Positions 1,660 through 43,427 of a stretch of DNA of 64,000 nucleotides are shown piece after piece. How positions within the stretch are numbered: position 1 is the stretch's first letter; every line of letters starts with the position of its first letter. The stretch is from an uncultured Pseudomonadales bacterium. Its GTDB lineage: Bacteria > Patescibacteriota > Microgenomatia > UBA1400 > UBA12028. The notes under the pieces are model-generated. The model did no database searches. It saw nothing but the letters and a program-made list of their open reading frames with translations, and had not been told where the DNA came from. The stretch spans positions 68,894 to 132,893 of the forward strand of contig CAZWPK010000001.1 of the NCBI GenBank assembly GCA_964635905.1, in the 5' to 3' direction. A program made the position numbers and the translations under genes.

Positions 1660-1692
1660 GTGAAGTAGAAAAGTAGTTGCTTTCAAAATGAA

Positions 1693-6098: not shown

Positions 6099-6115
6099 AG
6101 AGGAGATGATATACT

Positions 6116-7060: not shown

Positions 7061-7078
7061 ACGCGAACAGTTTAACAC

Positions 7079-7438: not shown

Positions 7439-7599
7439 ACATGTTCTTTCTAACGGTAGCGAAATATGAAAGGTGAGTGCTACACAGCGTCAAAGACGGA
7501 TTATATAGCCTATATTATATATTTGTCAAATTATAGATTCTAAAAAAAGGTCTGTGACCTTTCATCAACAGTAGCGTAACCAGAACAAATTGAAAAGAG

Positions 7600-7989: not shown

Positions 7990-8162
7990 AGGTACTTGCG
8001 ATAGTACTCAGACTTTCAAGCCGCTGTCAAGCGTTGTTCTCACCAAAAAGCGTGTGTAAGAAAACCGCGCTCGTTATTCTGACGGCGACAGGATATACTA
8101 CACTTGAGAAAATGTAGCAGATGGGAAGTCTTTTTCAAGAGTCTTCTTGAACGTTCGATACT

Positions 8163-9506: not shown

Positions 9507-9552
9507 CTATCGATTATTTGAATCTTGCTCTGCTCTAGAGTACGATTGTTTC

Positions 9553-22645: not shown

Positions 22646-25600
22646 CTACGGTGAACCCGAAGACGGTCCAAAGAACAGAGAGGCGTTGTTGTTATAGAGT
22701 TTGCGGGCGTGATAGATGGATAAACGATAGTTAAAGATTTGTAGTGCATCAATTTGACCGGTGAAATTATTACTACCAACCGTTGCTGCATACGTGCCAA
22801 TGGTTTTGCTACGTCCGGTTGTAGTGATGGTATTTCCGTTAAAACCAGCGCTTCCCGAGACAGTTTTACCATCTAAGAACATGTAGACCTCATGACTGCT
22901 CCCATTGTAACTGAGGGTACACACAAAGTGGTGCCAAGCACCGTCGTTGACCAGCGGGGAAGGAGAAACGGTCCCACTTCCGGAGGCATTGCCGACATTA
23001 CAAGCAACGCGATTGGTGGTGTTTACATAGATGTTAAATCGGTGGGTTGTAGTAGTCCCCACATTGGAAAAAATGTATCCAATGCCACCGGAATAATCGG
23101 CCGAAGTTTTGAACCAGACGCTTACTGATTGTTCTCCGACGTCGGGTGAAAAGATGCTGGTATCGGCAATCGAAACATAGTCATCACTCCCATCGAAGTT
23201 TAAGCTTCCATTAAATTTCCCAGTCGATCCATTTCCCCAGGCAGTGGAAGCGGTAGTGCAGGTACCAGCGGTGGTTTGGGAGCCGCTAGCCCCAACGGTA
23301 AGGGTGCCGTTGTTTCCTTTCCCAGAAGAGTCGTTTAAGGTGTTTCCTTGACATTCATCCAGTTTCCAATGAGCGATGGGAGCTCCCCGGCTAAAGTCAT
23401 AGGCAATTTGAGCATCGGTGCGGGCATAGTTATACAACTTGAATTCATCCACCGACCCATTCAAGAAAGAGTCGGGACTATTGTCTTGGATGTTGCCTAT
23501 CGTAACCGCTTCCACCGAGGCTGCACCATCATCAAACCAGTCATTTAAGCTCCCAGCTCCGCCATCGGTGGCGGTGACCGCAATCTTTACGCCGTTGACA
23601 AACATCTCGACTCCCAAGCCGCTCCCAGCTTGGCGCAGACATAGATGTGTCCAGGTAAGACGGGGAATGGCATTGTCGGCAGAGGTGTAATCGTACGCAT
23701 CATTGGCGGTGCCATCTTGTCGAATGTGGACGCGTAAACGGGCGATATCACTCCCCGTATCAGAGATATAGATCGAATGCTTGGTCACCGTTCCTCCGGT
23801 GTCGGCAACGGAGAAAAAGCTGCCCTGCGTCCCATCATCAGTAGGCTTATTGTAATAGACCCAACCACACACAGTGCCTACGGTGTGACTGTCCGTACTA
23901 TTGTCCGGAAGGGCAATAAAATCGTCGGTACCATCTAACCGCACCCCTGTCCCAATTTTCCCTTGCGTCCACACGGGTCCACTAGTCAGCGTCCCGGTGT
24001 TTCCCGTGCTACTGGTATCAACAGCAGTAGTGCCAGTATTGTCATCGAATTGTAAATAGGAAGCTGGGGGATTCCCGCTCCCATCCACGGATTGGGCACT
24101 CTCGGCGGTGGAGGTGCTATTGATATTTAAGGCTGCGTTGGCATTCGCATCCACACGAATTTCTTCGGAGCTAAGCTCACCGCTGTAGATTTTAAACTCG
24201 TCAATTCTTCCATCAAAATTTGCGGTGGTTGTTCCGCCAACCAGGAAATTTGCCGTATCTGTAATTGCAGGGGAACCCGATCCATTCGTGGAGGTTCCTT
24301 TCCGTATTCCATTTACCCACAGACTAATCTCATCGTCGCTATCATCTGTATATGTTAGGGCAATATGGTTCCAGGTGCCGGTAGTGATCGGAGAACTTAC
24401 ATTAAGCGTTGCGTCGCTTCCGGTTAAATCTAGACTACATTCAATATCCAGATTACTTCCTGACTGGGAATCTACCCGACACCAGGTAGTGGTGCCTTTA
24501 TAAAAAATTTGACCCACATCATTTTCGCCATCAGAATCGGCATTAATCCAAGAAGAGATCGTGACACCTTGTGTTAATGTCACATCAAAATCAATCGCAT
24601 CACCATTGGTGACTGTTAGGACGTCATCACTACCATCAAAGTCTAAACAACCATTGAGTTTACAGTCGGTTTTGGTTTTCCAAGTGGTGCCGGTTAAAGT
24701 CTCTGTAAACGCGATACTAGAGCGGGAGTTAATGGTGGTGCCTTGGACTTCATCCAATGCCCAATAGGCAATCGGAGAGCCAACCGGGGAACCGGCCAGT
24801 GGATGTCCCCCATTCATATCTTCAATAATTTGTTCACTGGTTCGCTGGTAGTTATATACACGAAGATCATCCATTTTCCCCGGGAACTGGGTTGAAACAC
24901 CACTGTTAAGAGCTCCTATCAAGATTGCAGCGTTGCTACTTATTCGTCCCGCGATCGCGCAGGTTTTTACCAGGACGCCATTTAAATAGATACGAACGTT
25001 CACTCCGGTTAGTGTATCTTCATAGGTGACGGCCGCATGACTCCAAGTATTGGCGGAGAGAATTCCTGTGGACGTATTGCAGCTAGTTAAGACCGATTGG
25101 GTTTGGTTGCGTACATTTCCAAACAGTCCGCCTCCAGCAAGCTGTGCCAGTCCAAACCCATATGTGGACCCATTTTCTCCTCCGGCAATCACTCCAGCAG
25201 GTGTGATTGTAGAAGGATTGATCCAGGCCATGACGCTGGCACTCCCGTTGGTGATGGTATATGGTGTGCCAACCGATCGTATATAGTCATTCACCCCATC
25301 AAAAAATCCAGCTTTGCCAAATTTCCCCTCGGCTCCACCCATGGGTCCAGTCGAATTTGGACACGCAATTGCTGAATAGGCATTTCCCGATTTTTCCTGT
25401 ACTGTGGCGGTTGAACAGTCATTGGTCCAACTCCCTTCATCCATGGGCCAGTACCCTATAGGTCCTGTAGCCCAGTTGGCAAGTTGTTCGATTGCAAGAG
25501 GTGAGAGGGCGCGGTTATAAATGCGAGCTTCATCGATAATTCCTTTGTACGGGTGGGTTGTGGGTGCACCTCCCAAGTACACGACTTCGGTTCCGGTATA

Positions 25601-27568
25601 TAAAGTGCCGGTATAGGTCGTGCTACTTTCCAATTTTCCGTCAATAAAAATAGACGCTCGAGTCCCATCCATGGTCGCGGCAACATGATGCCAAATTCCA
25701 TCATTGACTAGGGTTGTACCTGCGACTGCCACTCCATCGTTTACTCCTCCAACTTTGGAAAATAACACGATGGAGCCATCGGTTCCGTACGCACCTCCTG
25801 ATGTAAGACCGAGCCAATAATTGCGTGTGGTATTGCTATCGTTATCTTTGGATATAAACGTCTGTAAACTTCCTGAGGACGTCGTCTTCACCCAGGCGGC
25901 TAGAGTGAACTGTTGCAGTTGGAGGGAAGCAGCATTGGCAACGCTGATGTAGTCATTGGTTCCATCCATCCACACCGCGTTGCCAAAGCGCGCGGTGCCA
26001 GTTTTGTGGACAACTTGATAGTTACACGAGTTTAAGGTGGCAGCGAATGCATCCGTGGTAAAGGTTTTAGTACTCCCCACATAGTCGTTAATAACACGGA
26101 TGGTGTTAATCGTATTACCGCCACAGGTTGCGGTGATTTGCAGATACATTCCAACATACATGTCGTCAACGGACGACAGTGTTCCATCGGTATCAACTAA
26201 CACCGTTGTAGATCCACCGGAAGCATCGGCCGTCCCACCTTCATTTGTGCCGGTGATGGTGCCAGTATTCCCGATGCCCGAATCATCAACCACCGACGTT
26301 CCTGCCGTCAGTAGTTCATCCATCTTCCAGTAGCCAACGAGACCTTCCGAGAGAAAGGTGGTGGGGTCGTTTCCTCCTAGTTGAGCGGCCCGATTGCTAG
26401 CCATATCCATTTTTATCTGGGCGGGGGTACGCGCGTACCCATACATTTTGACCTCATCGATATATCCTTTATACAAATAGGTCGAACTATGGTTAAATCG
26501 ACCGATGCTTAAGGTTCCGGCGGTCGCGGTGTCGCGTGTTCCCGAAGTACTCGAGCTTGTGGCTACAGCTACACCATCAATGTACAGGGTCATTGTCGTG
26601 CCGGAAACCGTACATTCTAGATGATGCCATTTACTATCGCGATAATTCGTCGTTACGATGGCCTCTAGGTATGTGTTTCCTGAATTGGCTTGGTACACTT
26701 TACAGTGCAGAGTTTCATCGGTATGAAAAAAGATGGCATAGAGCCAGTCGTTGCTAGTTCCATAATTGACCAACACGTGACTGGACCCGGCGGGTCCAGG
26801 ATTTTTGAACCAAAGGGAAGTGGAAAAGTTTCCCGTAAACTCGAGCGCATTAATATCTCCCACGTTGACATAATCTTCCACTGCATCAAAGTATAAACAA
26901 CTTTCACTCACACAGCGATCTTTCGATTGCCAGACAGGGTCGGTGGAGTTAGCAGATGTCGAGTTGCCTAATGTGCCATCATAGTTTTTTGTCGTACTAT
27001 CTTCGATAAACTGTCCCTGGGCTTCATCCATCTTCCAGTACGCGACAGGACCTGGGGTAGATTCTTCGGACTGGAGGGCGAGAGAACCGAGGCCGGAGGC
27101 AGCGGAGGAGAAGTCAGCGGATTCAAATCCATTGGCAATGGTGGGGTTGCCATAATACATATAGTAGTTGGATTCCCCAGCTGGGAGGGAATCAAAGAGG
27201 ACATGGATGTTGGCCGTGGCATCACAATCTACGACATAGAATTTGAGTAACTGTCCATTTTCTTTGGTGAAGCGGAGATCACCACAATCAGCTTGGAACT
27301 TGGTAGAGTCTGTGGCATCAAAGGAGGGGACAGAGACATAGACAGAGGATTCTAAGGAGGAATGGGAGGGGATGTTGACTCGTTTTCGATAGGCCCAATT
27401 GGCATCAAACCAGGCTGCTTGACTTAAGGGAGCTTGACGTAAGGAGAAGAATACCAAGGGGATGAGAATGAGTACAACAGGAAGAGTGATCGCCAAAACA
27501 TAGAGCCGACGCAACGAACGAGATGCTGGTATGCGTTTTTGATGTCGTTTCATTAGTTGATAATCCAC
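22646..27568 (-). CDS. 1640-aa paralog of the upstream LamG/DUF2341 surface protein
   Basis: N-terminal 165 aa are identical to the 17840..22501 product apart from the first ~25 residues. Multiple LamG blocks (FDAVEDYV, MDGTNDYISV, FDGVNDYI, FDGSDDVLTV, LDGTDDFIALPD, FDGSDDYVSI). Same FGPSSGSP C-terminus. Start overlaps the giant gene's stop by 16 nt. Confidence 0.8.
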   Translation of the reverse strand: MDYQLMKRHQKRIPASRSLRRLYVLAITLPVVLILIPLVFFSLRQAPLSQAAWFDANWAYRKRVNIPSHSSLESSVYVSVPSFDATDSTKFQADCGDLRFTKENGQLLKFYVVDCDATANIHVLFDSLPAGESNYYMYYGNPTIANGFESADFSSAASGLGSLALQSEESTPGPVAYWKMDEAQGQFIEDSTTKNYDGTLGNSTSANSTDPVWQSKDRCVSESCLYFDAVEDYVNVGDINALEFTGNFSTSLWFKNPGPAGSSHVLVNYGTSNDWLYAIFFHTDETLHCKVYQANSGNTYLEAIVTTNYRDSKWHHLECTVSGTTMTLYIDGVAVATSSSTSGTRDTATAGTLSIGRFNHSSTYLYKGYIDEVKMYGYARTPAQIKMDMASNRAAQLGGNDPTTFLSEGLVGYWKMDELLTAGTSVVDDSGIGNTGTITGTNEGGTADASGGSTTVLVDTDGTLSSVDDMYVGMYLQITATCGGNTINTIRVINDYVGSTKTFTTDAFAATLNSCNYQVVHKTGTARFGNAVWMDGTNDYISVANAASLQLQQFTLAAWVKTTSSGSLQTFISKDNDSNTTRNYWLGLTSGGAYGTDGSIVLFSKVGGVNDGVAVAGTTLVNDGIWHHVAATMDGTRASIFIDGKLESSTTYTGTLYTGTEVVYLGGAPTTHPYKGIIDEARIYNRALSPLAIEQLANWATGPIGYWPMDEGSWTNDCSTATVQEKSGNAYSAIACPNSTGPMGGAEGKFGKAGFFDGVNDYIRSVGTPYTITNGSASVMAWINPSTITPAGVIAGGENGSTYGFGLAQLAGGGLFGNVRNQTQSVLTSCNTSTGILSANTWSHAAVTYEDTLTGVNVRIYLNGVLVKTCAIAGRISSNAAILIGALNSGVSTQFPGKMDDLRVYNYQRTSEQIIEDMNGGHPLAGSPVGSPIAYWALDEVQGTTINSRSSIAFTETLTGTTWKTKTDCKLNGCLDFDGSDDVLTVTNGDAIDFDVTLTQGVTISSWINADSDGENDVGQIFYKGTTTWCRVDSQSGSNLDIECSLDLTGSDATLNVSSPITTGTWNHIALTYTDDSDDEISLWVNGIRKGTSTNGSGSPAITDTANFLVGGTTTANFDGRIDEFKIYSGELSSEEIRVDANANAALNINSTSTAESAQSVDGSGNPPASYLQFDDNTGTTAVDTSSTGNTGTLTSGPVWTQGKIGTGVRLDGTDDFIALPDNSTDSHTVGTVCGWVYYNKPTDDGTQGSFFSVADTGGTVTKHSIYISDTGSDIARLRVHIRQDGTANDAYDYTSADNAIPRLTWTHLCLRQAGSGLGVEMFVNGVKIAVTATDGGAGSLNDWFDDGAASVEAVTIGNIQDNSPDSFLNGSVDEFKLYNYARTDAQIAYDFSRGAPIAHWKLDECQGNTLNDSSGKGNNGTLTVGASGSQTTAGTCTTASTAWGNGSTGKFNGSLNFDGSDDYVSIADTSIFSPDVGEQSVSVWFKTSADYSGGIGYIFSNVGTTTTHRFNIYVNTTNRVACNVGNASGSGTVSPSPLVNDGAWHHFVCTLSYNGSSHEVYMFLDGKTVSGSAGFNGNTITTTGRSKTIGTYAATVGSNNFTGQIDALQIFNYRLSIYHARKLYNNNASLFFGPSSGSP
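27035..27497. repeat. about 463-bp perfect direct repeat, copy 2 (5' coding end of LamG gene 2)
   Basis: Identical to 21971..22433. The two copies are 5064 bp apart. Confidence 0.8.
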
Positions 27569-30500
27569 CAGTTAAACTCCACATCCTTACTCAAGGCTTG
27601 GTCCAGCGTGACCGTAAACCCACCCACGGTAGTAGTTGTCTCGTCTTGACCTTGTTTGCCAGAGACATACAAGACTTGGTTATTCGTACTGCTCGTTGGT
27701 GTGATATAGATTAACGAGTCCGAGGACACTTGAGTGGTATAAATAATGACATCGGTTTGTCCTTGCTTCAAGACGGCTTTTCCAGTACTTGCGTTTGTTG
27801 CCGATCCACTCGCTGTGGTTGGGGCGCTCAAGGTCAGTTTAGCAAAAGTTGCAGATCCACTGGCATCAATAGAGGCAACTTCTGTCATCCCGCTCTTGAT
27901 GGCAAGTTTGCCACTTTCACTGGAAAGAACCCCACTCTCACTAGCCAGTTGAATCCCTAAAATCTTGGATTCCGGAGCAATCAAGGTTGTTGACAGTTGA
28001 CCCTGGACGGTCACGTCTTGGGTAAAGAGAGCGTCGGTTGTCACCACTAATCCACCTTCGCGATTAAGGGTGAGAGCCCCAGCTAACAGATCTAAGGTTC
28101 CAGTCCCGGTAGCTTGGACATAAAGGGTCGACTCGGTGTCGGAAATAAGATTAATCGAGTTTTTGTCAAATGCCATACTGCTTCCTACAATGAGGGCCGT
28201 ATTGATGTGAGCATTGGTGATACTGGCCGTGCCTTGGACGTTTAAGTATTCGTTAGCAAAAACCGCATCGGCCGAAATCAGATCCGCAGAACTGCTAGCC
28301 TCTGTATTCCAGTCGGCACTGTCGGAAAGCAGATCGGAGACAATCAATTTAATTTCTGGATTCAAACTCGCAAGCAATTCATCCTTTTGTTGTCCGGAGA
28401 TTGTGGAATCCTGAGCCAACAGGGATGAAATGGAAGCTTCTGCGGTAATTAGCCGATTTGCCATTTCGGTGATATTTTTAGCTGTCAAGTTTCCAGAGAT
28501 GGTGGCCTCGGCAGCCGTCAGAATTCCAGAGATGGAGGCTTCTCGAGTATCCACGCGCTCACTCTGGGAAACTAAGTATCCATTTTGTGCAATCGTATCG
28601 ATGACTAAGTTATGCAGACTCTTTCCCCCAACGGTTAACGTGTCTGTTTGAATCGACGAAGATTGAATAGTTCCAGCAATCAACGTGGTAAAGACATTAC
28701 TCGTAGACTCCACAATTTCGGAGAGGGAAGCGGCAATCGAACGAATCAGCGTTTTATTGGCTTCTGCTTCTGGATTACTGGCAAGTTGTGCTAATCCATC
28801 AGCAACCATTTGGCCTTGGTTATCCAGTGCCATCGTGGGATCAGCAAACGATGGATTCACATACACTAAGACGTCACGATCTCCAGAGCCTGGGGTCCAA
28901 GCTTCCAAGGCATATCCGATAATATAGCCTGGTTTATTGGCTTTGGTAGCGCGTCCCGATTGTGTCGAAGGTCGCAGCGGATCTCCGGGGCGAATGGAGC
29001 CTTCTTGATCGTCTAGTTTAACATCGAGCTGTCCAGTGAATCCAACCAAAGCATAACTGGCAGCAATTTGTTCATCGGTTTTCCCTTTAGGGTAGTTTCC
29101 AACAAAACCAGCGCGATTGGAGGTGATACCTAAGAGTTTGTCTCCGGACTGGAATCGACGCACTTTTCCAGTTTCATAGTTAATACCCACGACTTCATTA
29201 GTGGGCAGGTCGCCTTCCTTTTCAAAGTATTCTGCAAGGTCGGCACCCGTAGTTTGGAAGGCAGCTTCACCATAGACTGTTCCATCGGCTCGGACGCGGA
29301 AGACTGAAGCAGCATCAGAACGTGTTAAGGAATTGTACGCGGTAATTAAGTTGTAGGCAGTGGTAGATGATCCAGCCCCTTCAACAGTCAATACACCTGG
29401 ATCACCTTGGGCGCCAGCGGTTCCTACGTTGGTCATGGTGATCGCTCCCGTGTTTCCGTTACGCACCAATAATGAGATGGTATCCAGATCATTGGTGGTG
29501 ATAAATCCACCCGCCACATTAAGATCAGTGGCGGTTGTGCCGGTTACCGATGTGGAGGTGTTACTAACCACAAAGTTCCCCGTACCTGTTAGGTCGGCGA
29601 CGATATCGCCTCCATTGTAGGTGCGTAGAGTCAAGTCGTTACTCTCATAATTTTCTCCGGCTTCAATGTAGAGCGGAGCCTTGGACTTGATAGAAGATGT
29701 CGTTTGATTGGTAAACTGCAAATCATATGCCATTGAGACATCCCCAGGGGCATTAAAGGCGACTGGTAAGGCGGCAGTGATAGCAGTCTCAGAGACAGAG
29801 AAGAGAGATGAGGCCGTGTCAGCAACCGAGAACAAGTTGCCACTGGTACTGCCATTGGTGCCAATGTTGATTCGGAAGAGATCTCCAGTGGCAGACGTTG
29901 CCGATCCCGGACTCCAATCGAAGTTGGCTAAGAAACCGGAAGTAAAGGCTGTAGAGGTAGAGGCGAGGGAGAGACCGGTACCGGAGGAGAGGGCATTAAC
30001 GCTGAGCGCTAATCCAGTCCCTGTAGCCGTTGCAGACTGAATGAGCATACCGGAGGTACCAGCGGTGACTAATTCCAATCGATCATCAGTGGCTTCATCA
30101 TAGCCCAAGGTCCAATCTTGATCCAAGCCGAAAGCAATTCCATTGTCGTCACCCAAGAACAACTGCTCCCATTCCGCAGCTGCAGATCCTAGTGAATTTC
30201 CTTCGGCGGCGCCAGCTGTCAAGTTGGTGGCATTCAGGGCTAGTTCGGCAACAGAATTGATGTAGAAGGTAGCGGTATCTGCCGTGGCTTCTCCTAAATC
30301 GATGTTTTCACCACCTGCAGTGGTAATGTCACCACCGCCTACACTCAAATCTCCAGAGACTGCTGTGGTTGGTGCGGTAATGGTAACAGTTCCATCCGTA
30401 TCGTTATCAATTTTTTCTCCATTCGCAAAGGTGATATCTCCACCAACCCCTGAAAGTGTTAATCCTGTGGTCCCGGAAATGGTAGTATTTCCAGACAGCG

Positions 30501-33500
30501 TGAGATCTCCACCAGAGGGAGCGATGGTCAGATCCCCGTTCGTATCGGTGGTCAAGTCGGAGTAGGTAGACCCATCAGCATAGGTTAGTCGTAATTGAGA
30601 ACCGGAGGTAGCTAAGACATCGAGTTTTCCATCCGGTCCGGTGGTTCCGATTCCCACATTTCCAGAGGTGTTGATCGTTAAGAAGGCATTGGTACCTGGT
30701 GTTGTTCCATCACCAATCTGGAAAAGGTCGTCATCATCCGACCCTGCATCTTCTTGAACACCTAACCAGAAATCGGTATCGGTGGCTGTCTTCGTATCCA
30801 AAATAATGTTGGGATCTGCAGAGTTGATCACCACATCTCCGGTTCCTTGGAAATCAAAGACGGCATTTCCAGTTCCATAGGTTTGGAAGGAAAGGTTGTT
30901 GTTTTCAAATGATTCACCAGCTTGCAGAATCAATGGTCCATAAGACTTGATATAGGCTGCTGTTTGATTGGTAAAGAGGAGATCGTAGGCCATCGAGACA
31001 TCCCCAGCTGCCGTAAAGGAAGTTGGGAGATTTGCAGTGATTGCAGATTCTGAGACCGAGAAGAGGGAAGAACCAGTGTCTTCAATATCAAAGAGATTTC
31101 CAGTTGTTGTCCCATTCGTACCAATATTGATTCTAAAGAGATCTCCAGAGGCTGTTGTGGCTGATCCTGGACTCCAGTCCAAACTTGCAAGACTTCCGGA
31201 AGTTAAGGCTGTAGATGTAGAAGAGAGAGCCAAACCCGTTCCGGAGGAGAGGGCATTAAAGGTGGTGGCAAGACCAGTCCCTGTAGCTGTTGCAGACTGA
31301 ATTAGCATACCGGAGGTACCAGCGGTGACTAATTCCAATCGATCATCAGTGGCTTCATCATAGCCCAAGGTCCAATCTTGATCCAAGCCGAAAGCAATTC
31401 CATTGTCGTCACCCAAGAACAACTGCTCCCATTCCGCAGCTGCAGATCCTAGTGAATTTCCTTCGGCGGCGCCAGCTGTCAAGTTGGTGGCATTCAGGGC
31501 TAGTTCGGCAACAGAATTGATGTAGAAGGTAGCGGTATCTGCCGTGGCTTCTCCTAAATCGATGTTTTCACCACCTGCAGTGGTAATGTCACCACCGCCT
31601 ACACTCAAATCTCCAGAGACTGCTGTGGTTGGTGCGGTAATGGTAACAGTTCCATCCGTATCGTTATCAATCTTCTCACCGTTGGCAAAGGTGATGTCTC
31701 CACCAACTCCTGAAAGAGTTAATCCTGTGGTCCCCGATACAGTCAGGTTTCCAGCTGCGGTAATCGCGCCAGCAGTTAACGTCATGGAATCGGAGGCAAA
31801 GGCGAGAGTTGGATCGGTAGCACCTGCATCAAAGGTCCAGGTAAATCCAGATCCGGATCCATAGGTGGTAGTGCCAACTTCGGTAGAATCCCAGGCAATG
31901 TCATCGGCGTTAATATCAATCGCGGTTCCTTCACCGACATTCAAGGTCACATCGCCGGTGATTCCACCACCCGTTAATCCGGAGCCAGCGACTACACTGG
32001 TAATATCTCCACCGGATCCTGCGATCGCCGCATCCAGGTCATCGAGGACATCTTGCACGGTTGTCGAAGCGGAATTACCAAACTCATCAAAGACGCCAAC
32101 TAACGAAGCTCCAGAAGTAATATTGTCTGTTCCCACATCATTGAGGCCAATGGCACCGATGGTTAAGTCTCCACCGGTATTGATGGTGAGATTCACGACA
32201 TCCGAGACAGTACCGGTGTTAATATCGATACCATTAATTGTTTCAGCAGTTGCTGCGGTGATGGCTCCGGAGGCATCAACTTGGAAGGCGTTTGCGGTAC
32301 CAGAGATTAATGTTCCCGATACATCCAAGTTTCCAGTGATTCCAGTAGAACCAGCAGTAATGGTGAGGGCATCGGAGGCAAAGGCGAGTGTTGGGTCGGT
32401 AGCACCTGCATCAAAGGTCCAGGTGATTCCTGATCCACTTCCGAATGTGGTAGTTCCTAGTTCTGTGGAATCAAAAGTCACGGTGGGACTCCAGGCTTCT
32501 CCAGCGGAACCAGAGACATCGATGGCTGTTCCTTCCGTGAGTCCGGCGATATAATTCCCAGTGGTGTCGGTGCCGAGGGCAACCGAGTCTGAAGCAATGG
32601 TGAGTGCGGTTGTATTAGCTGCACCCAAAGTCGCAGTCACATCACCGGTGAAGGTGTGACCAGAGAGAAGTACCGTACCTGTTAAGTCAGGGAAGGTAAT
32701 GGTCTTGTCCGCACTCGTTGCATCGGCAACGGAGAAGTACGTTTCAATCGTGTTGGCAGTGGCCCCTTCAAAGATGAGTCCTGACACACCAAACTTGGAT
32801 TCATTCGCCGCGAGGGTGTGATCTCCAGATAATGCTGCAGTGAAATCGAAGGCGATGGCATCCGCAGCAACACTAATTCCGGTTCCCGCTCCAATGTTGA
32901 GTGTTAATGCTCCAACTGTTCCACCACCTGTGAGCCCTGATCCTGCAGTGACTCCAGTTGTTGCATACGTTGCCACGTTGTTGGAGTCTACCAGCGTTCC
33001 GGATCGTCCATCGAGGAGTAAGAGTTCTGCTGTAGAGAGAGTTCCACCAGTAACGGTGACATTGTTGGATCCTAATGCCAACGTTCCAGCTGCAGTGATT
33101 GTGCCAGCCGTGAGGGTCAGACTATTGTTACCAGCAGCGAGGGTGGGATCGGTTACTCCAGAGCCATTCAAGGTCCAGGTGAAGTCAGAACCGGATCCAT
33201 AGGTGGTTGTTCCAACTTCCGTCGAATCCCAAGCGATATCATCCGCGTTAATATCGATAGCCGTGCCTTCACCAATATTTAAAGTGACATCTCCAGATAC
33301 TCCTCCGCCTGTTAATCCTGAACCAGCAGTCACAGAGGAGATATCTCCCGCCAAAGCTGTAGTGATCGAGGCATCGAGGTCATCTAAGACATCTTGAACG
33401 GTTGTTGAGGCTGAGTTTGCGAATTCATCAAAAGTTCCAACCAAGGATGAACCAGAAGTAATATTGTCTGTTCCCACATCATTGAGGCCAATGGTTCCGA

Positions 33501-36500
33501 TGGTTAAGTCTCCACCGGCGTTAATGGTTAAGTTCACCACGTCACTGACGGTTCCCGTGGTGATATCAATGCCATTAATTGTTTCGTTGGTTGCAGCAGT
33601 GAGTGTCCCAGTTGTATTTAGGTTTCCGGAAGCATCAACTTGGAAGGCGTTTGCGGTGCCAGACGTCAGAGTACCCGAGACATCAAGATTTCCAGTGATT
33701 CCAGTAGAACCAGCCGTAATGGTGAGAGCATCCGAGGCAAAGGTAAGCGTAGGATCGGTAGCACCAACATCAAAGGTCCATACTACTCCAGAGCCGGATC
33801 CGAATGTTGTCGTTCCCAATTCCGTAGAGTCAAAGGTCACGGTGGGACTCCAACCTTCTCCCGGAGTTCCAGAAACATCGATAGCGGTGCCTTCGGTTAA
33901 GCCCGCGACATAATTACCCGTTGTATCAGTTCCTAAGGCTACAGAATCGGAGGAGATGGTGAGGGCGGTGGTGTTGGAGGCTCCAAGTGTAGCTGTGATG
34001 TCCCCAGTGAATGTATGACCGGATAAGAGAACGGTTCCTGAGAGGTCAGGGAAGGTAATGGTTTTGTCACTGGTGGTTGGATCCGTGACAGTGAAATAGG
34101 TTTCGATCGTGTTTGTGGTTGCTCCTTCAAAGATCAAGCCGGACTGACCAAACTTCGCGTTGTTGGCTGAGAGAGTGTGATCTCCAGAGAGGGCAGCGGT
34201 GAAATCAAAGGCAATATCATTCGCGTTCACAGCAATGCCGGTTCCAGCACCGATATCAAGGGTTAAGGCTCCGACGGTTCCACCCCCAGTTAAACCGGAT
34301 CCGGCAGTGACACCGGTTGTGGCATAGGTTGCCACATTGTTGGAGTCTACTAAGGTACCAGATCGACCATCGAGGAGCAATAATTCTGCTGTGGAAAGTG
34401 TTCCACCTGTAATCGTCAAATTGTTCGAGCCTAGAGCTAGAGTTCCTGCAGTGGTTATGGTTCCAGCAGTCAGTGTCATGGTGTCGGAGCCAAATGCGAT
34501 TGTTGGGTCGGTTGCACCCGCATCAAAGGTCCAGGTGATTCCTGATCCGGATCCATAGGTCGTTGTTCCCACTTCGGTAGAATCCCAGGCAATATCATCC
34601 GCATTAATATCAATCGCAGTTCCTTCTCCAACATTTAGGGTCACATCTCCAGAAACACCTCCTCCGGTCAACCCAGATCCCGCAGTTACCGATGAAATAT
34701 CTCCAGCTGCCCCAGCTGTGATGGCAGCATCTAAATCATCCAAGACATCTTGCACGGTGGTTGAGGCAGAGTTTCCGAATTCATCAAAAACACCAACTAA
34801 CGATGCACCAGAAGTAATGTTGTCGGAACCGACGTCATTTAATCCGATCGTTCCAATCGTTAAATCCCCACCCGCATTCACCGTAAGGTTGACGACATCC
34901 GTGACTGTCCCGGAAGAGATATCGATGCCATTGATGGTTTCTGCCGTGGCAGCGGTGATGGCTCCAGAGGCATCCACTTGGAAGGCATTTCCGGTTCCAG
35001 ATGTCAGTGTTCCAGAAATATCGAGGTTTCCGGCGATCGCGGTAGATCCAGCCGTGATCGTCAAAGCGTCAGATGCAAAAGCAAGCGTAGGATCGGTAGC
35101 TCCCACATCAAAGGTCCAGGTGATTCCTGATCCACTTCCGAATGTGGTCGTTCCCAATTCCGTAGAGTCAAAGGTCACGGTGGGGCTCCAAGCTTCTCCA
35201 GCAGTGCCTGAAATATCGATCGCAGTTCCTTCGGTAAGTCCTGCTACGTAGTTACCGGTTGTATCGGTACCTAGTGCCACGGAATCGGCCGCAATGGTCA
35301 GTGCGGTTGTGTTACTTGCTCCCAAGGTTGCAGTCACATCACCGGTGAAGGTATGTCCCGACAATAGTACTGTTCCTGACAAATCGGGGAGAGTAATGGT
35401 CTTGTCGGTTGTGGTTGGATCTGTAACTGCTAGGTAGGTTTCAATCGTGTTGGCAGTGGCACCTTCAAAGATGAGTCCTGATTGACCAAACTTGGATTCA
35501 GTGGCGGCTAGTGTGTGATCTCCAGAAAGAGCAGCAGTGAAGTCAAAGGCAATCGCGTCAGCGACAACACTAATTCCAGTTCCAGCACCAATATCCAACG
35601 TGACGTCTCCGCTTACTCCGCCGCCTGTTAATCCAGATCCAGCAGTCACGGAGGAGATATCTCCTGCAGAAGCTGTGGTGATGGCAGCATCTAAGTCGTC
35701 TAGAACATCTTGGACGGTTGTTGAAGCGGAATTACCGAATTCATCGAATACTCCAACCAAGGATGCACCGGAGGTAATATTATCTGTTCCGACGTCGTTC
35801 AAGCCAATAGCGCCGATCGTTAAGTCACCACCAGCATTTATCGTCAAGTTGACCACATCCGACACCGTTCCCGTGGTGATGTCGATCCCATTAATTGTTT
35901 CGTTGGTTGCAGCCGTTAATGTGCCTGTGGTGTTTACATTTCCCGAGGCATCAACTTGGAAGGCGTTCCCGGTTCCCGATGTGAGCGTTCCCGATACATC
36001 CAAGTTGCCTGCGACTGCTGTGGATCCAGCTGTGATGGTGAGGGCATCGGAGGCGAACGCTAAGGTAGGATCTGTCGCACCAACATCAAATGTCCAGGTT
36101 ACTCCAGAGCCAGATCCAAAAGTTGTTGTACCAAGTTCGGTAGAGTCGAACGTTACGGTGGGACTCCATGCTTCACCTGCGGAGCCAGAAATATCAATGG
36201 CAGTACCTTCGGTTAATCCTGCAACATAGTTTCCAGTGGTGTCTGTCCCTAGTGCTACAGAATCGGCGGCAATCGTTAACCCCGTCGAGTTATCAGAATC
36301 GAGTGTTGCGGTCACATCACCAGTAAATGTGTGGCCTGAGAGTAGTACAGTACCGGACAGATCAGGGAAGGTGATGGTTTTGTCAGAGGCTGTGGGATCG
36401 GTGATGGCAAAGTAGGTCTCAATCGTGTTCGCGGTTGCGCCTTCAAAGATCAAACCTGATACACCAAATTTGGATTCGTTGGCGGCCAGTGTGTGATCTC

Positions 36501-39500
36501 CAGATAATGCTGCAGTGAAATCAAAGGCGATCGCGTCAGCCGCTACACTGATTCCAGTTCCAGCACCAATGTTGAGTGTTAATGCGCCAACAGTCCCACC
36601 ACCGGTGAGTCCGGATCCTGCGGTAACTCCGGTGGTGGCATAGGTTGCCACATTGTTGGAGTCTACTAAGGTACCTGATCGACCATCGAGGAGCAATAAT
36701 TCTGCTGTGGAAAGTGTTCCACCCGTAACCGTCAGATTGTTGGATCCAAGAGCTAACGTTCCTGCTGCCGTAATGGTTCCTCCAGTGAGTGTGATGCTAT
36801 CGGAGGCAAAGGCAATCGTAGGATCGGTTGCCCCTGCATCGAATGTCCAGGTGATTCCCGATCCCGATCCAAAGGTCGTCGTTCCAACTTCCGTCGAATC
36901 CCAAGCGATATCATCCGCGTTAATATCGATAGCCGTGCCTTCACCAATATTTAAAGTGACATCTCCAGATACTCCTCCGCCTGTTAATCCTGAACCAGCA
37001 ACGACGGAGGTAATATCTCCAGCACCACCGATACCGGTAACATCGATCCAACTTAAGACTCCGGCGCCATCCGTAATCAAGACCTGGTTGGAACTTCCAT
37101 CGTTAGTTGGGAGGGTGTAGGTTACATCTTGGGTTTGGGTTCCAGTTTGGAACACGGTGGAATAGGCATTGTCACCATTGGAGATCAAAGCTAATTTTCC
37201 AGGGACGTTACTACTACCACTGCCAATGTCGGTTCCGATGGTGATTCCTGTTGCTCCGGCGACATGGAGTGCAGAGGAGGGTGTTTGGGTTCCAATTCCT
37301 ACGTTGGCGGCAATGATGTTGACCTCATCCGTCGCTTGATCATCAAACTCAATGCGTCCTGCAGAAGCACCCAATCCTAACCAGTCATCATCCGCAGTGG
37401 CATCGGTAAACACGTCGCCAGTTGCCATCGAACCGACAGTAGTGATGTCGCCAGTTCCAGCACCAATTCCAGTTACCGATTGCCAAGAGAGAACGCCACT
37501 CCCATTGGTAGTGAGCACATAATCACTGGTACCGTCATCCACGGGTAAGGTGAGGGAATAACTACCTGTTTGAGAGGCGCTTGGTTGGAGAGTCACTGAG
37601 TAATCGGTAGCTCCAAGTTCGTTGTAAACAACGATTGATCCGTCTGTTCCATTACTTCCAAAAGTTGCAGTTCCACCGTTCACCGCGAGTGTACCAGACG
37701 TAGAAATGTTTCCAGAACCATCAACTTGGAATGCATTAGCGGTTCCACTTGCTAATGTTCCTGAGACATCGAGATTTCCAGTAATCCCTGTTGAAGTTGC
37801 TGCAATGGTGAGCGCATCGGAGGCAAAGGTAAACGTCGGATCGGTGGCTCCGACATCAAAGGTCCAGACGACTCCAGATCCTGAACCGAACGTGGTTGTT
37901 CCCAGTTCGGTGGAATCAAAGGTCACGGTGGGACTCCAAGCTTCTCCGGCAGTTCCAGAAACATCGATGGCTGTGCCTTCGGTTAAGCCCGCGACATAAT
38001 TACCGGTTGTATCGGTACCTAGTGCCACGGAATCGGCTGCGATGGTGAGGGCGGTGGTGTTACTTGCCCCTAAGGTTGCAGTCACGTCGCCAGTGAACGT
38101 GTGGCCAGAGAGAAGTACCGTACCTGTGAGGTCAGGGAAGGTAATGGTCTTGTCTGCACTCGTTGCATCCGCAACCGAGAAATACGTTTCAATCGTATTG
38201 GCCGTCGCACCTTCAAAGATAAGCCCCGAGACACCAAACTTTGATTCGTTAGCGGCTAGTGTGTGATCTCCAGAAAGAGCAGCCGTGAAGTCAAAGGCAA
38301 TCGCGTCAGCGGCTACACTGATTCCCGTTCCCGCTCCGATATCCAGGGTGACGTCGCCGGAAGCTCCGCCGCCAGTGAGTCCTGATCCAGCCGTTACAGA
38401 AGAAATATCTCCAGCAGCTCCTGCGGTAATGGCGGCATCTAAATCATCCAAGACATCCTGAACGGTAGTGGAATTGGAATTGGTAAACTCATCAAAGACT
38501 CCAACCAGTGAGGAACCGGAGGTGATGTTTGTTGTACCCACATCGTTTAAGCCGATCGTTCCAATCGTTAAATCTCCACCGGCATTGACGGTGAGGTTGA
38601 CGACATCCGTAACAGTTCCGGTGTTGATATCAATCCCATTGATGGTTTCATCGGTGGCGGCACTGATGGTACTGGCTGTGACAATGGCACCAGCCGTTGA
38701 AATAGACCAATCATCCCCACCTGTTAACGCCAGCGTTGTAGAAGCGTTGTTGTTCCCAATCGTAATCACATCCGCAGCTGTACTGTTGGTTGCGATGTTA
38801 ACGGTATCTGCAGCAGAGGAGCTGACACCCGCAATATCGATCGTCTTTCCGGTGGTGTTGTCCCCGATGTTAATTCTCCCCGTTCCTTCAATCAAAATAT
38901 CATTGCGGACATCGGTGTTATTGGCGATGACAAAGTTATCGGCATCCACACTGATGTAATAATCTTCAGCTGCAGAAGTGGTGTCATTAAAATAGAGGGT
39001 AGGATCAGCCTGTTGGAATGAATGATCACTGGTCCACACAAAGGCATAGGCCTGATCAACGGCAACGCTATCCGTTGCAACGGTAATTCCATTTCCAGCT
39101 CCAACATCCAAGACTCCGGTAGTCAAGGTAAGTCCATTTCCGGCAGTGGTACTGGCCAGCTCTAGTGCGGCTGTCCATCCTTCCCCAGCAGTTCCGGTTA
39201 CGGTAATTCCATTGGTACCAGTGACGTTGGCGACATAATTTCCGGTTGTATCGGTACCTAGTGCCACGGAATCGGCTGCGATGGTGAGGGCGGTGGTGTT
39301 ACTTGCCCCTAAGGTTGCAGTCACGTCGCCAGTGAACGTGTGGCCAGAGAGAAGTACCGTACCTGTGAGGTCAGGGAAGGTAATGGTCTTGTCTGCACTC
39401 GTTGCATCCGCAACCGAGAAATACGTTTCAATCGTATTGGCCGTCGCACCTTCAAAGATAAGCCCCGAGACACCAAACTTTGATTCGTTAGCGGCTAGTG

Positions 39501-42500
39501 TGTGATCTCCAGAAAGAGCAGCCGTGAAGTCAAAGGCAATCGCGTCAGCGGCTACACTGATTCCCGTTCCCGCTCCGATATCCAGGGTGACGTCGCCGGA
39601 AGCTCCGCCGCCAGTGAGTCCTGATCCAGCCGTTACAGAAGAAATATCTCCAGCAGCTCCTGCGGTAATGGCGGCATCTAAATCATCCAACACATCCTGA
39701 ACAGTGGTTGACGCGGAGTTTCCAAATTCATCAAACACTCCAACTAGTGAGGCTCCGGAAGTAATGTTATCCGTTCCAACATCGTTCAAGCCAATCGTGC
39801 CAATGGTCAGATCTCCACCGGCATTGATGGTCAAATTCACCACATCCGAGACGGTACCGGTCGTAATATCAATGCCGTTAATCGTCTCATTGGTTGCAGC
39901 GGTGAGTGTCCCCGTGGTATTGAGGTTCCCTGATGCATCCACTTGGAAGGCGTTGGCAGTTCCAGAGTTGAATGTTCCGGAGACATCGAGGTTTCCTGTA
40001 ATTGCGGTAGCGCCTGCGGCAATGGTGAGTGCATCGGAAGCAAAGGTCAGGGTGGGATCGGTGGCACCAGAGCCATCGAAGGTCCAGGTGAAGTTCGAGT
40101 TCGCTCCAAAGATGGTGGTGCCGACTTCAGTCGAATCAAACGTGACGGTGGGACTCCATCCTTCACCTGCGGCACCGCTAATATCAATCGCAGTTCCTTC
40201 GGTGAGTCCGGCAACATAGTTCCCAACGGTCTGGGTACCTAAGTCAACGGCATTATTGGCAATCGAAATATTGGCTTCATTGGACGGTGAGGCGATCAAG
40301 GAAAATTCTGTGCCAAAATCCAAGGTATCCACGTTGGTGCCAACCGCAACATCATTATTCTCCACGTTGACCACGGCAAACGAAGCACCCGTATCGGATC
40401 CACATTCCCACAAACTGGTCGCATCATTCCATTTCAGAACTTGGCCATCCGAACACCCTTGGAGTAATCCAATGCGATCGGTGTCGACTTCTAGTCCCGA
40501 TGCAGATCCCGTGGATCCCGTACCATCGGCCGAAATCAATTGCAGGGCATCGGCATCCAAATATCCTGTGGCGGTTGTCAGCGTAACTGGTGTAGACCCA
40601 GCCAGCAATTGACCACTTACCAGGACGTTTCCACCGGAGAAGACAAATTGATCAGAGGTATTATAGGACAAACTACCAGTATCTCCAGTGGATGAATACA
40701 GCGACAGGGTTGCATCGGCAGTGGCGCCAGTCCCAATCCGAACCAGGTTACTTGCCACATTCACGGAAAAAGAAGAGGCTAGGGTAGAGCCACCAATCGC
40801 AACGTCATCCGTCGTGGCGGTAAGGTAGGAGAGGGTTCCGGAGTCTGTCCACTTGGAAGCACCCGATCCCATGGCAGAGTCAAAATCATCCAAGACGTCT
40901 TGAAGCGTCGTTGCATTGGAGTTATTAAATTCATCATACACACCAATCAAGGCTGCTCCGGAGGTGGTGTTACTGGAGCCGATGTCATTGAGTCCAATCC
41001 CGCCAATCGACAGATCTTGACCCGCTGTTAAGTTCAGAGAACCCGCACTGTTAATGGTTAACACGTCGGTTCCATCCGAAGCTTCGATCACAAAGTAGTT
41101 TGCAGTTTGGGTGCTGTTTCCTTGAATGAGGAATTGGATCTCATCGCTATCGCCATCAATGCCTAGTTTTGCTAAGTCGAGTGTCGAGCCAATAGTCAGA
41201 TCATCCGTGGTTGCGGTCAGATAGGTTACATCTCCACCATCCGTGAAGAGATTTAAGGATGCGCCATCGCCCCAACTGAAGCCACCGGTTGCAGAGTTAT
41301 AGGAGAGCAGCGCCCCATTAGCTGCGGTTCCAGAGACTTTGATATCGACAGCTGCGATACTGCCATCTTCTAACTCAGCGGAAGCAATCGAGGTCCCTAA
41401 ACTGGTTTGCAAGGATCCATTGGAGACTAAGAGTCCCGTGCCGGTCAAGTCCGTAAAGGAATCTCCATTCAGTGAGAGGGTACCAATCGTTGCCGTGGTG
41501 AGTTGGGCGTTGGGACCATACAAGGTGCCGTCCAATTCAATGTCCCCTGAAACGAATAAATCTCCGGCTGCGGAGTCAATACTTCCTGGAGTGGAATCTC
41601 CAATCAACACCGCTCCACCACCCGGATCAATGACAAGATCTCCCGGCGTTGAAAGCGTATTCCCCGCAATGGTTAAGTCTCCGCCTACGGTTGTGGTACT
41701 CGTGGCGGATCCAATGGTGATGAGCTGGGCAATCGACGGGAAGATGGAAGCGGATGTTACGGAGGTGAGCAACTGTCCACTTTCCAGGGTTAAGGAGCCA
41801 GCAATGGTTGCGTCTTTTGCCACACGGAAATTCTCATTGAGCACGGTATCAACGTTGAGCGAGAAGCGTGTGTACTCTAAGGCGGTGCTACCTAAGATAA
41901 CCGACGGCATCTGCACTGATTCCGGAGCTTTTTTGCCCAAAACGAGGAATCTAGGAGCTTGTAATCGAGGAAGACGGAAGCCTAAGGCAATCGTCTGTAG
42001 TTTTGCAAACTCCACACTGGGAGTACTCGTCACGATCAAGGACGAGAGAGCAAGTAGGGCAATACAACACACCGTTACCAAGGCTGGGCGCAGATCCGCA
42101 ATACTGAGGCTTGGAAACGACACCGTGGGGAGATGGAAAGAAGGTAGCCGTAAGGAGAGCTGCTTGTGCGTGGAAACGGAGTGGGTGATCGAGGACCTCT
42201 CAACGAGTGGTGCGGATACGATGGGTGTACTGGTGGTTGCCACTACAGTAGGGGTGACCGCCGTTTCGCCATAGGGAACGGAAGTGGAGACTGGGGCAGT
42301 ATATAACCCGCGTTCGATGGCTTTCTTGTGTTTCTTGAATTCCTGAAGTTGGAGATACGAATAGCGTCGGTGACCTCCCAAAGTTCGAAGCGGTTCTAAG
42401 ATTCCACGATCTTCCCAGCGTCGGAGAGTTTTTTCAGAAACTTTAAGGATCCTGGCGGCCTCTTGAATGGAAAGTGAGCTAGTATCGAAGTGATTTTCCG

Positions 42501-42510: not shown

Positions 42511-42557
42511 ACATGGGTAAGTTTTTAACTCAGTCTCTTTTCGTTAACCTCTTGATC

Positions 42558-42669
42558 AAATGTCCAATTCTTGTTTTCGTTTTATGTCCAAATTTAGTAG
42601 ACCATTTTTTCGCACCCGGTGTCAAGCATGGAAATTGGACATTTTTATGAGTAAAAGTCCAAGTTTTTA
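42558..42669. promoter_or_regulatory. cluster of four AAATGTCCAA(A/G)TTT-like motifs in the divergent intergenic region upstream of the giant gene
   Basis: aaatgtccaattc (42558-42570), tatgtccaaattt (42583-42595), inverted aaattggacattt (42633-42645), aaagtccaagttt (42654-42666). A fifth copy aaatgtccaagttt lies at 43252-43265. Confidence 0.45.
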
Positions 42670-43427
42670 TAGGCAGATGCAATCCCGTCTTTTTTGTGTC
42701 AAAAACCTCAAATTTGATGGCAAATTGACTAAAAATACTCTGGAAATGAAATGAACTGCATAGTGCTCTGAATACCTAAAAACCTGCGGTAGTAGCGCGG
42801 TAATATCACAAGAATACGAATCTCTTGCTTTCAAGATGTAGACAGGTAAAAAATAGTTATCACCGCAGATTAAATCAGAGATAACGCGGCAGTATTATTT
42901 GCAAGAAGTATGGAAATGGATTTTTTGTGCTGTAACCGAACTGAGTAGCTTTTTTCTTCACTTTAGTATCCAAACAGCACTTTTTTTAAACTGTCTCAAC
43001 ACGTTCTTGCAATCCCCGTACTCAGAAAATGGAGTTTTTCCGACCAAGGGGGTACGCAAACGGGGAATACCGCACGCTCATTCTCCTCGTCTCCCGTCGA
43101 TTGCGGTGGGAAGCCAGCCTATCGGCATACCCAACATATAGCGACATCTACTTTGGGTGCAACCCAATCTCAATGAGTGCGTCGATTACTACGATGCAAA
43201 GAAGAGCTCCTTAATCCAACCGTAGGTTTATGATCAATCTTCTTATAGAGTAAATGTCCAAGTTTCGCGGCACGAAATGTTCTAAATACATTGTGTTCAT
43301 CGGTAATTTAATACGCACTGTCGTTGCGTAAAATGGCCAATCTACTGCCGAACGATGCTTCGGGTATTCATTCCTCGGTGTGGAACCACTTTGCATATCG
43401 ACCAAGAACAACGCTATACTAAGCCTA

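Follow-up and report, generated by a model that had tools for sequence, protein, structure and literature searches.

A giant surface fibre of Microgenomates with an N-terminal BldC-like helix-turn-helix and a candidate role at its own promoter

BldC of Streptomyces (PDB 6AMA/6AMK) is a 68-residue MerR-like winged helix-turn-helix (wHTH) protein that lacks dimerisation and effector domains and occupies 9-bp direct repeats, which vary in number, in a head-to-tail arrangement; the optimised BldC site is CAATTCGGACAATTCGGACA (consensus AATTxxxx(C)), its Arg30 reads a C-G pair, and the wing residues His46, Arg47 and Arg48 sit in the AT-rich minor groove (PMC5859096). Here we compare this and other described systems with the largest open reading frame (ORF) of a 64-kb stretch of contig CAZWPK010000001.1 (hereafter the window, meaning the whole stretch analysed). 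The ORF comes from a bacterium in the Candidate Phyla Radiation (CPR/Patescibacteria) and encodes a 4985-amino-acid (aa) protein with an N-terminal helix-turn-helix (HTH), a single transmembrane (TM) helix and a giant fibre-like ectodomain. Copies of a TTGGACA motif resembling the BldC site lie at the promoter of this giant gene and of its homologues, and we propose that a single polypeptide serves as a surface structure and also acts as the transcription factor of its own gene, with the fibre probably controlling its own production.

The giant's HTH is like BldC in being a minimal wHTH (36-41% identity over ~50 residues) with conserved contact residues, and repeat numbers are variable in both systems. 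The candidate site of the giant's family has the consensus AAATTGGAC; it agrees with the BldC protomer site AATTCGGAC at 7/9 positions, among them GGAC and the C-G pair read by Arg30. Whereas BldC is a free cytoplasmic protein of a developmental regulon, the giant's HTH makes up the first 1.3% of a membrane-anchored fibre; it also fails the NCBIfam cut-off for BldC, and many of the sites at giant genes are inverted rather than direct.

In membrane-bound one-component regulators such as ToxR, CadC and TcpP, a cytoplasmic DNA-binding domain at the N-terminus is followed by a single TM helix and an extracytoplasmic C-terminal portion. The giant has this ToxR-like layout too, and binding to DNA from the membrane-anchored state is what we propose for it. 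Their DNA-binding domains are OmpR/PhoB-type wHTHs coupled to periplasmic sensors of 100-250 residues, whereas the giant joins a MerR/BldC-type domain to a 0.5-MDa fibre and gave no Pfam match to an OmpR/PhoB-type winged helix (Trans_reg_C). RodZ, a structural, non-enzymatic protein, is similar in its cytoplasmic N-terminal HTH, one TM helix and extracytoplasmic C-terminal domain; in contrast to what we propose for the giant, its HTH is of the Xre type and binds MreB, not DNA. Phage fibres such as phi29 gp12 share the Peptidase_G2 domain and a D-x-A-E-Y-F cleavage motif with the giant, which is, however, chromosomal, syntenic and anchored by an N-terminal TM helix rather than by a virion adaptor, is 5-6x longer, and has ~560 residues after the cleavage site compared to 163 in gp12. 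A MerR-like wHTH is likewise found in RacA of Bacillus subtilis (5I41/5I44), where it links DNA to the envelope and anchors it at the cell pole (discussed in PMC5859096), but RacA is soluble, reaches the membrane via DivIVA, and has many GC-rich sites around the origin rather than sites at a single promoter. Finally, MYRF, a membrane transcription factor of eukaryotes, combines a DNA-binding domain, a phage-tailspike chaperone/self-cleavage domain implying trimerisation, and a TM helix (PMC3742443). Its chaperone lies in the cytoplasm between the DNA-binding domain and the TM helix, and cleavage frees the DNA-binding domain, whereas the giant's chaperone is at the far extracellular C-terminus and is a Peptidase_G2 domain, not S74.

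A literature search found no description of an HTH-TM-giant-fibre architecture, in agreement with the initial annotation of this stretch, which knew of no characterised protein of this kind. In databases, relatives go under the name of hypothetical protein or 'excisionase family DNA binding protein'.

Domains of the giant protein and its family

The giant gene starts with ATG, contains no internal stops and is divided as follows:

27553-42510, reverse strand: giant gene, encoding an HTH, a linker, one TM helix, a repeat-rich fibre ectodomain, a predicted autocleaving chaperone domain and a C-terminal tail
42313-42474, reverse strand: residues 13-66, cytoplasmic BldC/MerR-type wHTH (Pfam, NCBIfam, phmmer, AlphaFold2, Foldseek)
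42085-42312, reverse strand: residues 67-142, a KKHKK basic patch, then a disordered Ser/Thr/Pro/Val-rich linker (AlphaFold2, composition)
42025-42084, reverse strand: residues 143-162, single TM helix, a signal anchor with the N-terminus inside (N-in) (Kyte-Doolittle, AlphaFold2, family charge bias)
29242-42024, reverse strand: residues 163-4423, extracellular Thr/Gly/Ala/Ser-rich fibre (composition, repeat map, homologues)
28711-29361, reverse strand: residues ~4384-4600, Peptidase_G2 / phi29 gp12 pre-neck-appendage auto-chaperone domain (Pfam PF11962, PDB 3gqh)
27556-28710, reverse strand: residues 4601-4985, helix-rich stretch and terminal beta domain with the final residues FNWWIIN

The initial annotation had described an HTH, a TM helix and a giant fibre-like ectodomain, and this architecture was borne out by Pfam, Kyte-Doolittle analysis, AlphaFold2 (AF2) and the homologues; the N-terminal residues that it quoted are identical in the ORF translation, where residues 13-59 read LSIQEAARILKVSEKTLRRWEDRGILEPLRTLGGHRRYSYLQLQEF. 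Both profiles that it expected at the N-terminus, MerR and HTH_17, matched above cut-off. Residues 13-69 scored 49.0 bits with MerR PF00376 (cut-off 28.2), 46.3 bits with MerR_1 PF13411 (cut-off 21.6) and 40.3 bits with HTH_17 (cut-off 27). Among NCBIfam models HTH_BldC ranked first, although its 44.2 bits fall short of the cut-off of 77; next came the excisionase domain, HspR, IS607 and CarH. A phmmer comparison of the giant's HTH with BldC gave E-values of 1.3e-6 (6ama) and 2.3e-6 (6amk).

AF2 was run on residues 1-497 with a shallow alignment, and was confident only for the HTH and the TM helix. It predicted a helix-turn-helix-beta wing-helix fold for residues 11-66 (helices at 15-21, 26-34 and 52-60) at a predicted local distance difference test (pLDDT) score of 70-83. 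Foldseek searches against the PDB matched this fold only to DNA-bound MerR-type wHTH domains, namely those of RacA, CarH and BldC. The best matches had a TMt (TM-score normalised to the target) of 0.65-0.77 and a root-mean-square deviation of 1.6-1.8 A over ~50 residues; RacA 5i41 was the top structural match (TMt 0.70) and BldC reached a TMt of up to 0.77. Arg30, Trp31, His46, Arg47 and Arg48 of BldC align with R31, W32, H47, R48 and R49 of the giant, and T28 is also conserved. One subfamily has Asn-Gln in place of Gly-His in the wing (GNQRRY versus GGHRRY).

Classical MerR proteins use a palindromic operator within an over-long (19-20 bp) spacer between the -35 and -10 elements. In the giant, residue 66 is followed by the basic patch, the disordered Ser/Thr/Pro linker and the TM helix, with no coiled-coil and no effector domain, and at its promoter and those of its homologues the spacers are ~17-19 nt, with the motif after the -10 or before the -35. 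The domain had been described as a canonical MerR/excisionase-type HTH; it does match the MerR profiles, but it is not a classical MerR and is better described as a minimal BldC/excisionase-type domain. Among characterised proteins, BldC is its closest relative. A family-specific hidden Markov model (HMM) scored the fibre HTHs at 74-106 bits and soluble BldC-like proteins at no more than 73 bits. With the excisionase model TIGR01764 (cut-off 28.8) the N-terminal fragment scored 30.3 bits and the whole protein 25.2. An excisionase or prophage reading was rejected, since the neighbours are LamG proteins, iPGM and ATP synthase, an integrase is absent, and synteny is conserved across genera.

Residues 143-161 gave a Kyte-Doolittle score of 2.53, the sole 19-residue segment above 1.6 in the whole protein, and AF2 placed a helix at residues 137-162. 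Disorder is predicted for the stretch of ~70 residues that separates the HTH from the TM helix (pLDDT 23-29), and among homologues this linker is unconserved, with a median length of 51 residues (range 3-112). In 66 family members the flanks of the TM helix carried a mean of 3.45 Lys and Arg residues (K+R) on the N-side versus 2.30 on the C-side; the N-side had more in 44 members and the C-side in 10 (p = 8e-8). This family-wide excess of Lys and Arg on the N-side supports a cytoplasmic HTH and the N-in topology proposed earlier.

The ~4800 residues outside the cell are read as a tail-fibre-like rod. The fibre is rich in Thr (16%), Gly (13%), Ala (12%) and Ser (10%), and a repeat map resolved the ectodomain into ~6 super-repeats, each of 1.0-1.8 kb, together with two modules of 420 aa. 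The repeat periods exceed 500 nt and for this reason escaped Tandem Repeats Finder. A conserved base module is common to the giant and its homologues ('VLAATSF..V.F.VNV' in the latter). Two pairs of DNA repeats inside the gene are near-identical (99-100% over 350-400 nt; 38001-38400 versus 39240-39640, and 30050-30400 versus 31310-31660); the repeat number, and hence the exact length of the protein, could be mis-assembled or variable, with the N-terminus unaffected. The repeat modules were also found in HTH-less proteins; many HTH-less relatives of the ectodomain begin with presumably phage-tail-fibre-like sequences or with signal peptides.

Towards the C-terminus, Pfam Peptidase_G2 (PF11962, 'IMC autoproteolytic cleavage domain') matched residues 4384-4472 with 37.8 bits (cut-off 25). 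The C-terminal auto-chaperone fragment of phi29 gp12 in PDB 3gqh starts DFAEYFE, which aligned with DLAEYFE at D4424 of the giant, and self-cleavage is predicted between A4423 and D4424 (GA/DLAEYFE); 'GAD.AE.F' is invariant in the 4 homologues found, and the PHROG pre-neck appendage match was weak. Domains of the gp12 type make the shaft assemble as a trimer, after which they remove themselves by cleavage, and by analogy with this domain family the giant fibre would trimerise. The terminal FNWWIIN has counterparts in other fibres of relatives (FNWWVVN, VNWWIVN). The giant's C-terminus marks it as a phage-type fibre, and its ectodomain is akin to phage fibres while being cellular and anchored at the N-terminus.

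An exhaustive HMMER search returned 164 cluster representatives at E<=1e-30. At least 72 clusters carry the HTH, a count made among the best-matching 152 of these 164 representatives, with lengths of up to 7954 aa, and nearly all of the 72 have one hydrophobic segment 73-180 residues in. Scanning one genome per species revealed the HTH-linker-TM-giant arrangement at 12 Patescibacteria loci, including Woesebacteria and Levybacteria, and a metagenome scan added 14 further loci (~26 in all). When the N-terminal 371 aa were used in a word-index search, no more than 4 homologues came back, and it took HMMER and the contig scans to reveal the family. Other CPR genomes, which the initial annotation had proposed to search for an HTH on giant proteins, do contain such proteins; the giant is not unique and belongs to a large conserved family in Microgenomates. 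KTLRRW[ED] and RT.G..RRY are nearly invariant in the HTH, and the linker and ectodomain have diverged to 30-40% identity; the HTH is under strong constraint.

Loci L001, L004 and L088 have the same gene neighbours as the window, namely a divergent ~255-aa c-subunit-like gene, iPGM and ATP synthase genes, and we therefore regard these giants as vertically inherited orthologues and not as prophage genes. In Woesebacteria the giant gene thus retains its place beside the ATP synthase operon. The ATP synthase beta subunit of the window shares its cluster with a protein from a 'Candidatus Woesebacteria bacterium', which supports the CPR origin suggested earlier.

In some relatives (P0063, P0114, P0119, P0135 and P0137) the HTH is present as 2, 4 or 8 tandem copies, and three of these proteins have a TM helix after the copies. 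P0063 (locus L161, 2467-4338) has 8 tandem HTHs in only 623 aa, and its promoter is followed by the perfect 28-nt palindrome CCTATGCATTGCTTAAGCAATGCATAGG, not TTGGACA; with this different palindrome upstream, it was unusable for asking whether the number of sites equals the number of HTHs. At L006, a 1364-aa paralogous fibre (5654-9748) lies directly upstream of the HTH giant. This paralogue has two N-terminal Phage_int_SAM_1 domains (55.8 bits) and, around residue 415, a hydrophobic segment. Its chaperone domain is of the Peptidase_S74 type, and its last residues, FNWWVVN, are like those of the window's giant. It represents a second DNA-binding-type N-terminal domain on the same kind of fibre. 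Pfam searches of the short N-termini of P0122 and P0128 gave integrase-SAM matches at sub-threshold scores only.

A TTGGACA motif at the promoter

TTGGACWT occurs 12 times in the window (mean of 6.4 in whole-window shuffles), and 5 of these 12 copies fall within the 869-nt region upstream of the giant gene. The only convincing paired TTGGACA sites in the window are those upstream of this gene. Numbered from its ATG, the elements are:

42596-42625, reverse strand: promoter-like element, TTGACA at -115 (42625-42620), an 18-nt A-rich spacer and TCTACT (42601-42596)
42584-42591, reverse strand: operator-like site TTGGACAT at -81, on the expected transcription start and separated from the -10-like hexamer by 4 nt
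42560-42567, reverse strand: operator-like site TTGGACAT at -57, a direct repeat 24 nt downstream of the -81 site
42635-42662: inverted pair at -152/-131, just upstream of the -35, TTGGACTT (42662-42655, reverse strand) and TTGGACAT (42635-42642, forward strand), 21 nt start to start
43254-43261, reverse strand: distal TTGGACAT at -751 within the 18-nt repeat GAGTAAATGTCCAAGTTT, ~170 nt upstream of the divergent c-subunit-like gene

The 18-nt repeat GAGTAAATGTCCAAGTTT is also found at 42649-42666, and L001 has motif copies at the place equivalent to the distal site.

The promoter was recognised only through comparison across loci, the layout of TTGACA, a 17-19-nt spacer and a hexamer being present in ~22 homologous upstream regions. 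TTGGACA/TGTCCAA was found 21 times in 12 x 200 nt upstream of homologues versus 40 times in the other 173 kb, a 38-fold enrichment. In 15/25 non-redundant loci the motif begins 31-36 nt after the start of TTGAC[AT] (500 shuffles: mean 0.006, maximum 1), and in homologues it usually follows the -10-like hexamer at a distance of 3-4 nt and covers the expected transcription start. A second copy lies inverted 19-20 nt downstream, or there is a run of 3-5 direct copies, which are at a 10-nt phase in L011, L091, L093 and L007. When sorted by wing type, the flanks of the motif differed, with AAAA-TTGGACA-TTT at giants with GGHRRY (22 sites) and AAAC-TTGGACA-AAC at those with GNQRRY (22 sites). Such covariation of flank and wing is as predicted by direct recognition by the HTH, and is suggestive only.

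Two further elements were seen upstream of giant genes. Immediately 5' of the start codon (42511-42525) is a C-rich element, CTTACCCA in the window and L001 and CTGCCC(T/A) in many others, which occupies the same position in L001, L006, L010, L011, L082, L086, L091, L093 and L094. In L007, L009, L011 and L093, the giants of which have the GNQRRY wing, GATAAGATTATGATAAGATTAT is repeated just upstream of the -35 (~-100 to -200).

Autoregulation and rival explanations

The idea of a one-component TM regulator, put forward in the initial annotation, gains support from the BldC-like motif at the giant's own promoter in the window and at ~25 homologous loci. We favour, as a probable reading, a membrane-tethered autoregulator that limits the output of a costly fibre, the DNA binding being what we infer. 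The tethered HTHs would bind the TTGGACA repeats straddling their own promoter, in a manner akin to BldC protomers on 9-10-bp repeats, and HTHs, probably three per fibre, would occupy sites on and around the transcription start and so repress it; repression is argued because the sites lie on and just after the expected transcription start. Each membrane-inserted fibre would add HTHs to the cytoplasmic face, so that promoter occupancy would rise with fibre number, expression would fall as fibres accumulate, and the copy number of a 0.5-MDa product with a 15-kb mRNA would be held at a set level. Such negative autoregulation would amount to the fibre counting itself. On a ~25-nm tether (~75 residues) the HTH could reach the nucleoid unreleased, as ToxR-type regulators do, in Patescibacteria cells that are 100-300 nm wide (PMC12857230). 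The HTH is also translated first, minutes before the rest of the chain, and may act in cis on the gene copy under transcription.

Several observations weigh against this autoregulation, the weakest steps of which are the sign of regulation and the trimer. The sign is guessed from site position only, and BldC itself both activates and represses (PMC5859096). The AF2 monomer of the chaperone region (pLDDT ~40) was too poor to interpret and no fold search was made with it, leaving the trimer to the analogy with gp12. The link between HTH and TTGGACA comes from their co-occurrence and from the BldC analogy, and the covariation of flank and wing follows two lineages and could reflect shared descent. 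A generic promoter scan called no sigma-70 promoter upstream of the giant gene, and the -10 is weak. Taken alone, the window's protein has a K+R of 2 before the TM helix versus 6 after it, so that the positive-inside rule is ambiguous. At about half of the loci (~12), two motif copies are inverted ~20 nt apart and could form a 5' mRNA hairpin. Furthermore, the visible 64 kb belong to a contig of at least 505 kb, and the sites could in reality be bound by a soluble BldC-like paralogue encoded in another part of the genome. In L010, an 89-aa ORF with a related HTH (1398-1667, reverse strand; 37.9 bits with the family HMM) lies 8 kb from the giant and is possibly a soluble paralogue competing for the same sites.

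The HTH might instead serve as a tether that fastens the chromosome or the transcribing fibre locus to the membrane, by RacA-like anchoring or by transertion for co-translational export, with little effect on transcription. Consistent with this are the RacA DNA-binding domain as the top structural match, the translation of the HTH before a TM helix that comes 140 residues later, and the sites at -152/-131 and -751, outside the core promoter. We nevertheless consider a tether unlikely, as the most conserved site lies over the expected transcription start (15/25 loci), where it would be hard to occupy without affecting initiation, and as the window has one cluster of sites, whereas many sites would be expected for a protein that anchors the chromosome in general.

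It seems quite unlikely that the motif and the HTH are unrelated, with TTGGACA being the site of another factor or a transcript-stabilising 5' stem-loop and the HTH docking a cytoplasmic partner in a RodZ/MreB-like way. The small HTH ORF in L010 would suit another factor, and the copies inverted 19-20 nt apart downstream of the promoter could pair in RNA. However, the variable position of the stem was G-C in 6 cases, an A-C mismatch in 6, G-T in 3 and A-T in 2, with no compensation, leaving the hairpin unsupported. The window, L001, L011, L091 and L093 have direct repeats only, which cannot pair, and copies upstream of the -35 lie outside any transcript. An Rfam search of the window returned two tRNAs only and no leader RNA family. 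That the residues contacting bases and groove in BldC are conserved, and that the motif matches its site at 7/9 positions, also argues for a link between motif and HTH.

We hold it improbable that the giant is a signal-transducing transcription factor, in which tension on the ectodomain, its breakage or a ligand would lead to cleavage in or near the membrane and free the HTH, as in Notch, MYRF or regulated intramembrane proteolysis. The topology and the flexible linker would allow this, the same protein contains a self-cleaving phage chaperone domain, and MYRF provides a precedent for a DNA-binding domain, a phage chaperone and a TM helix acting together (PMC3742443). The giant's chaperone is, however, extracellular and ~4260 residues past the TM helix, where cleavage would free a C-terminal piece and not the HTH. 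In addition, the linker of 3-112 residues has no conserved cleavage motif, and no protease gene is conserved adjoining the locus. The sole site cluster seen, with most of the genome outside the 64-kb window, is at the gene's own promoter, which fits feedback better than the control of a broader set of targets. The earlier suggestion that activity depends on the state of the ectodomain, for example through proteolytic release after host contact, found no support, with no evidence either way.

An assembly or gene-calling error that fused a small MerR-like gene with a giant gene has next to no probability, despite the near-identical 350-400-nt internal repeats and in-frame GTG/TTG codons before the TM helix, since more than 2.5 kb separate the repeats from the N-terminus, the contig has a length of 505 kb, and 72 diverged cluster representatives, as well as ~26 independent loci drawn from many samples, share the same uninterrupted frame. 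This conserved frame through HTH, linker, TM helix and ectodomain effectively refutes the artefact considered in the initial annotation, and it is because many diverged homologues keep it that we regard the fusion as real, a stronger argument than start codons. It had also been argued that no other start could separate the HTH from its anchor; Met is indeed absent between the HTH and the TM helix, but codons 90, 130 and 144 are in-frame GTG/TTG. Start-site arguments are weak in this organism, where the majority of genes lack a Shine-Dalgarno sequence, and a Shine-Dalgarno argument against internal starts was dropped for this reason. An NCBI contig of 504,786 bp encodes exactly this giant protein.

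The CPR/Patescibacteria are a large, almost uncharacterised group, in which regulation, and the control of presumed host-contact surface structures, are largely unknown. The finding pairs one DNA-binding domain with a 7-9-bp site at one promoter, and the pair is conserved across genera. If autoregulation is true, the giant would be the first membrane-anchored BldC-type regulator and a structural macromolecule feeding back on its own gene, a simple rationing of a 0.5-MDa protein in a very small cell. The TTGGACA motif could then mark fibre genes and co-regulated genes in CPR genomes. As a tentative and rather doubtful extension, the giant host-contact fibres of Microgenomates, an entire class of episymbiotic bacteria of ultra-small size, may be hard-wired to the chromosome through cytoplasmic DNA-binding domains, BldC-type HTHs (1 or 2-8) or, in the paralogue, integrase-type SAM-like domains. 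The promoter would read fibre number, and possibly integrity or tension, coupling attachment to expression with no diffusible signal.

Neighbouring genes

Downstream of the giant gene, two genes for similar membrane proteins follow on the same strand:

22646-27553, reverse strand: downstream gene, type-II membrane protein with DUF2341 and 6 Laminin_G_3 domains, its ATG overlapping the giant's stop (TAATG)
17840-22501, reverse strand: second type-II membrane protein with DUF2341 and 6x Laminin_G_3

The giant and the first LamG gene are likely co-transcribed. The N-terminal regions of the two LamG proteins are nearly identical, which suggests a recent duplication of these genes. A DUF2341+LamG gene is also found downstream of the giant homologue in L004. 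The last gene of the same-strand cluster (15665-17800, reverse strand) starts 39 nt after the second LamG gene and encodes a 711-aa protein with ~8 hydrophobic segments and C-terminal tetratricopeptide (TPR) repeats.

On the other side, the divergent neighbour (43428-44198, forward strand; ORF listed from 43380) heads the ATP synthase operon. In its 256-aa product, a signal peptide and ~170 aa of extracellular domain are combined with a C-terminal hairpin of 2 TM helices; the protein gave no Pfam match, and no acidic residue was seen in the second TM helix. Homologues carry the JGI label 'ATP synthase subunit c'. The extracellular part is 29% identical to residues 4468-4600 of the giant over 136 aa (E 2e-9). 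The protein has ~375 homologues, and those named by organism belong to Woesebacteria, Gottesmanbacteria, Microgenomates or 'Patescibacteria group'.

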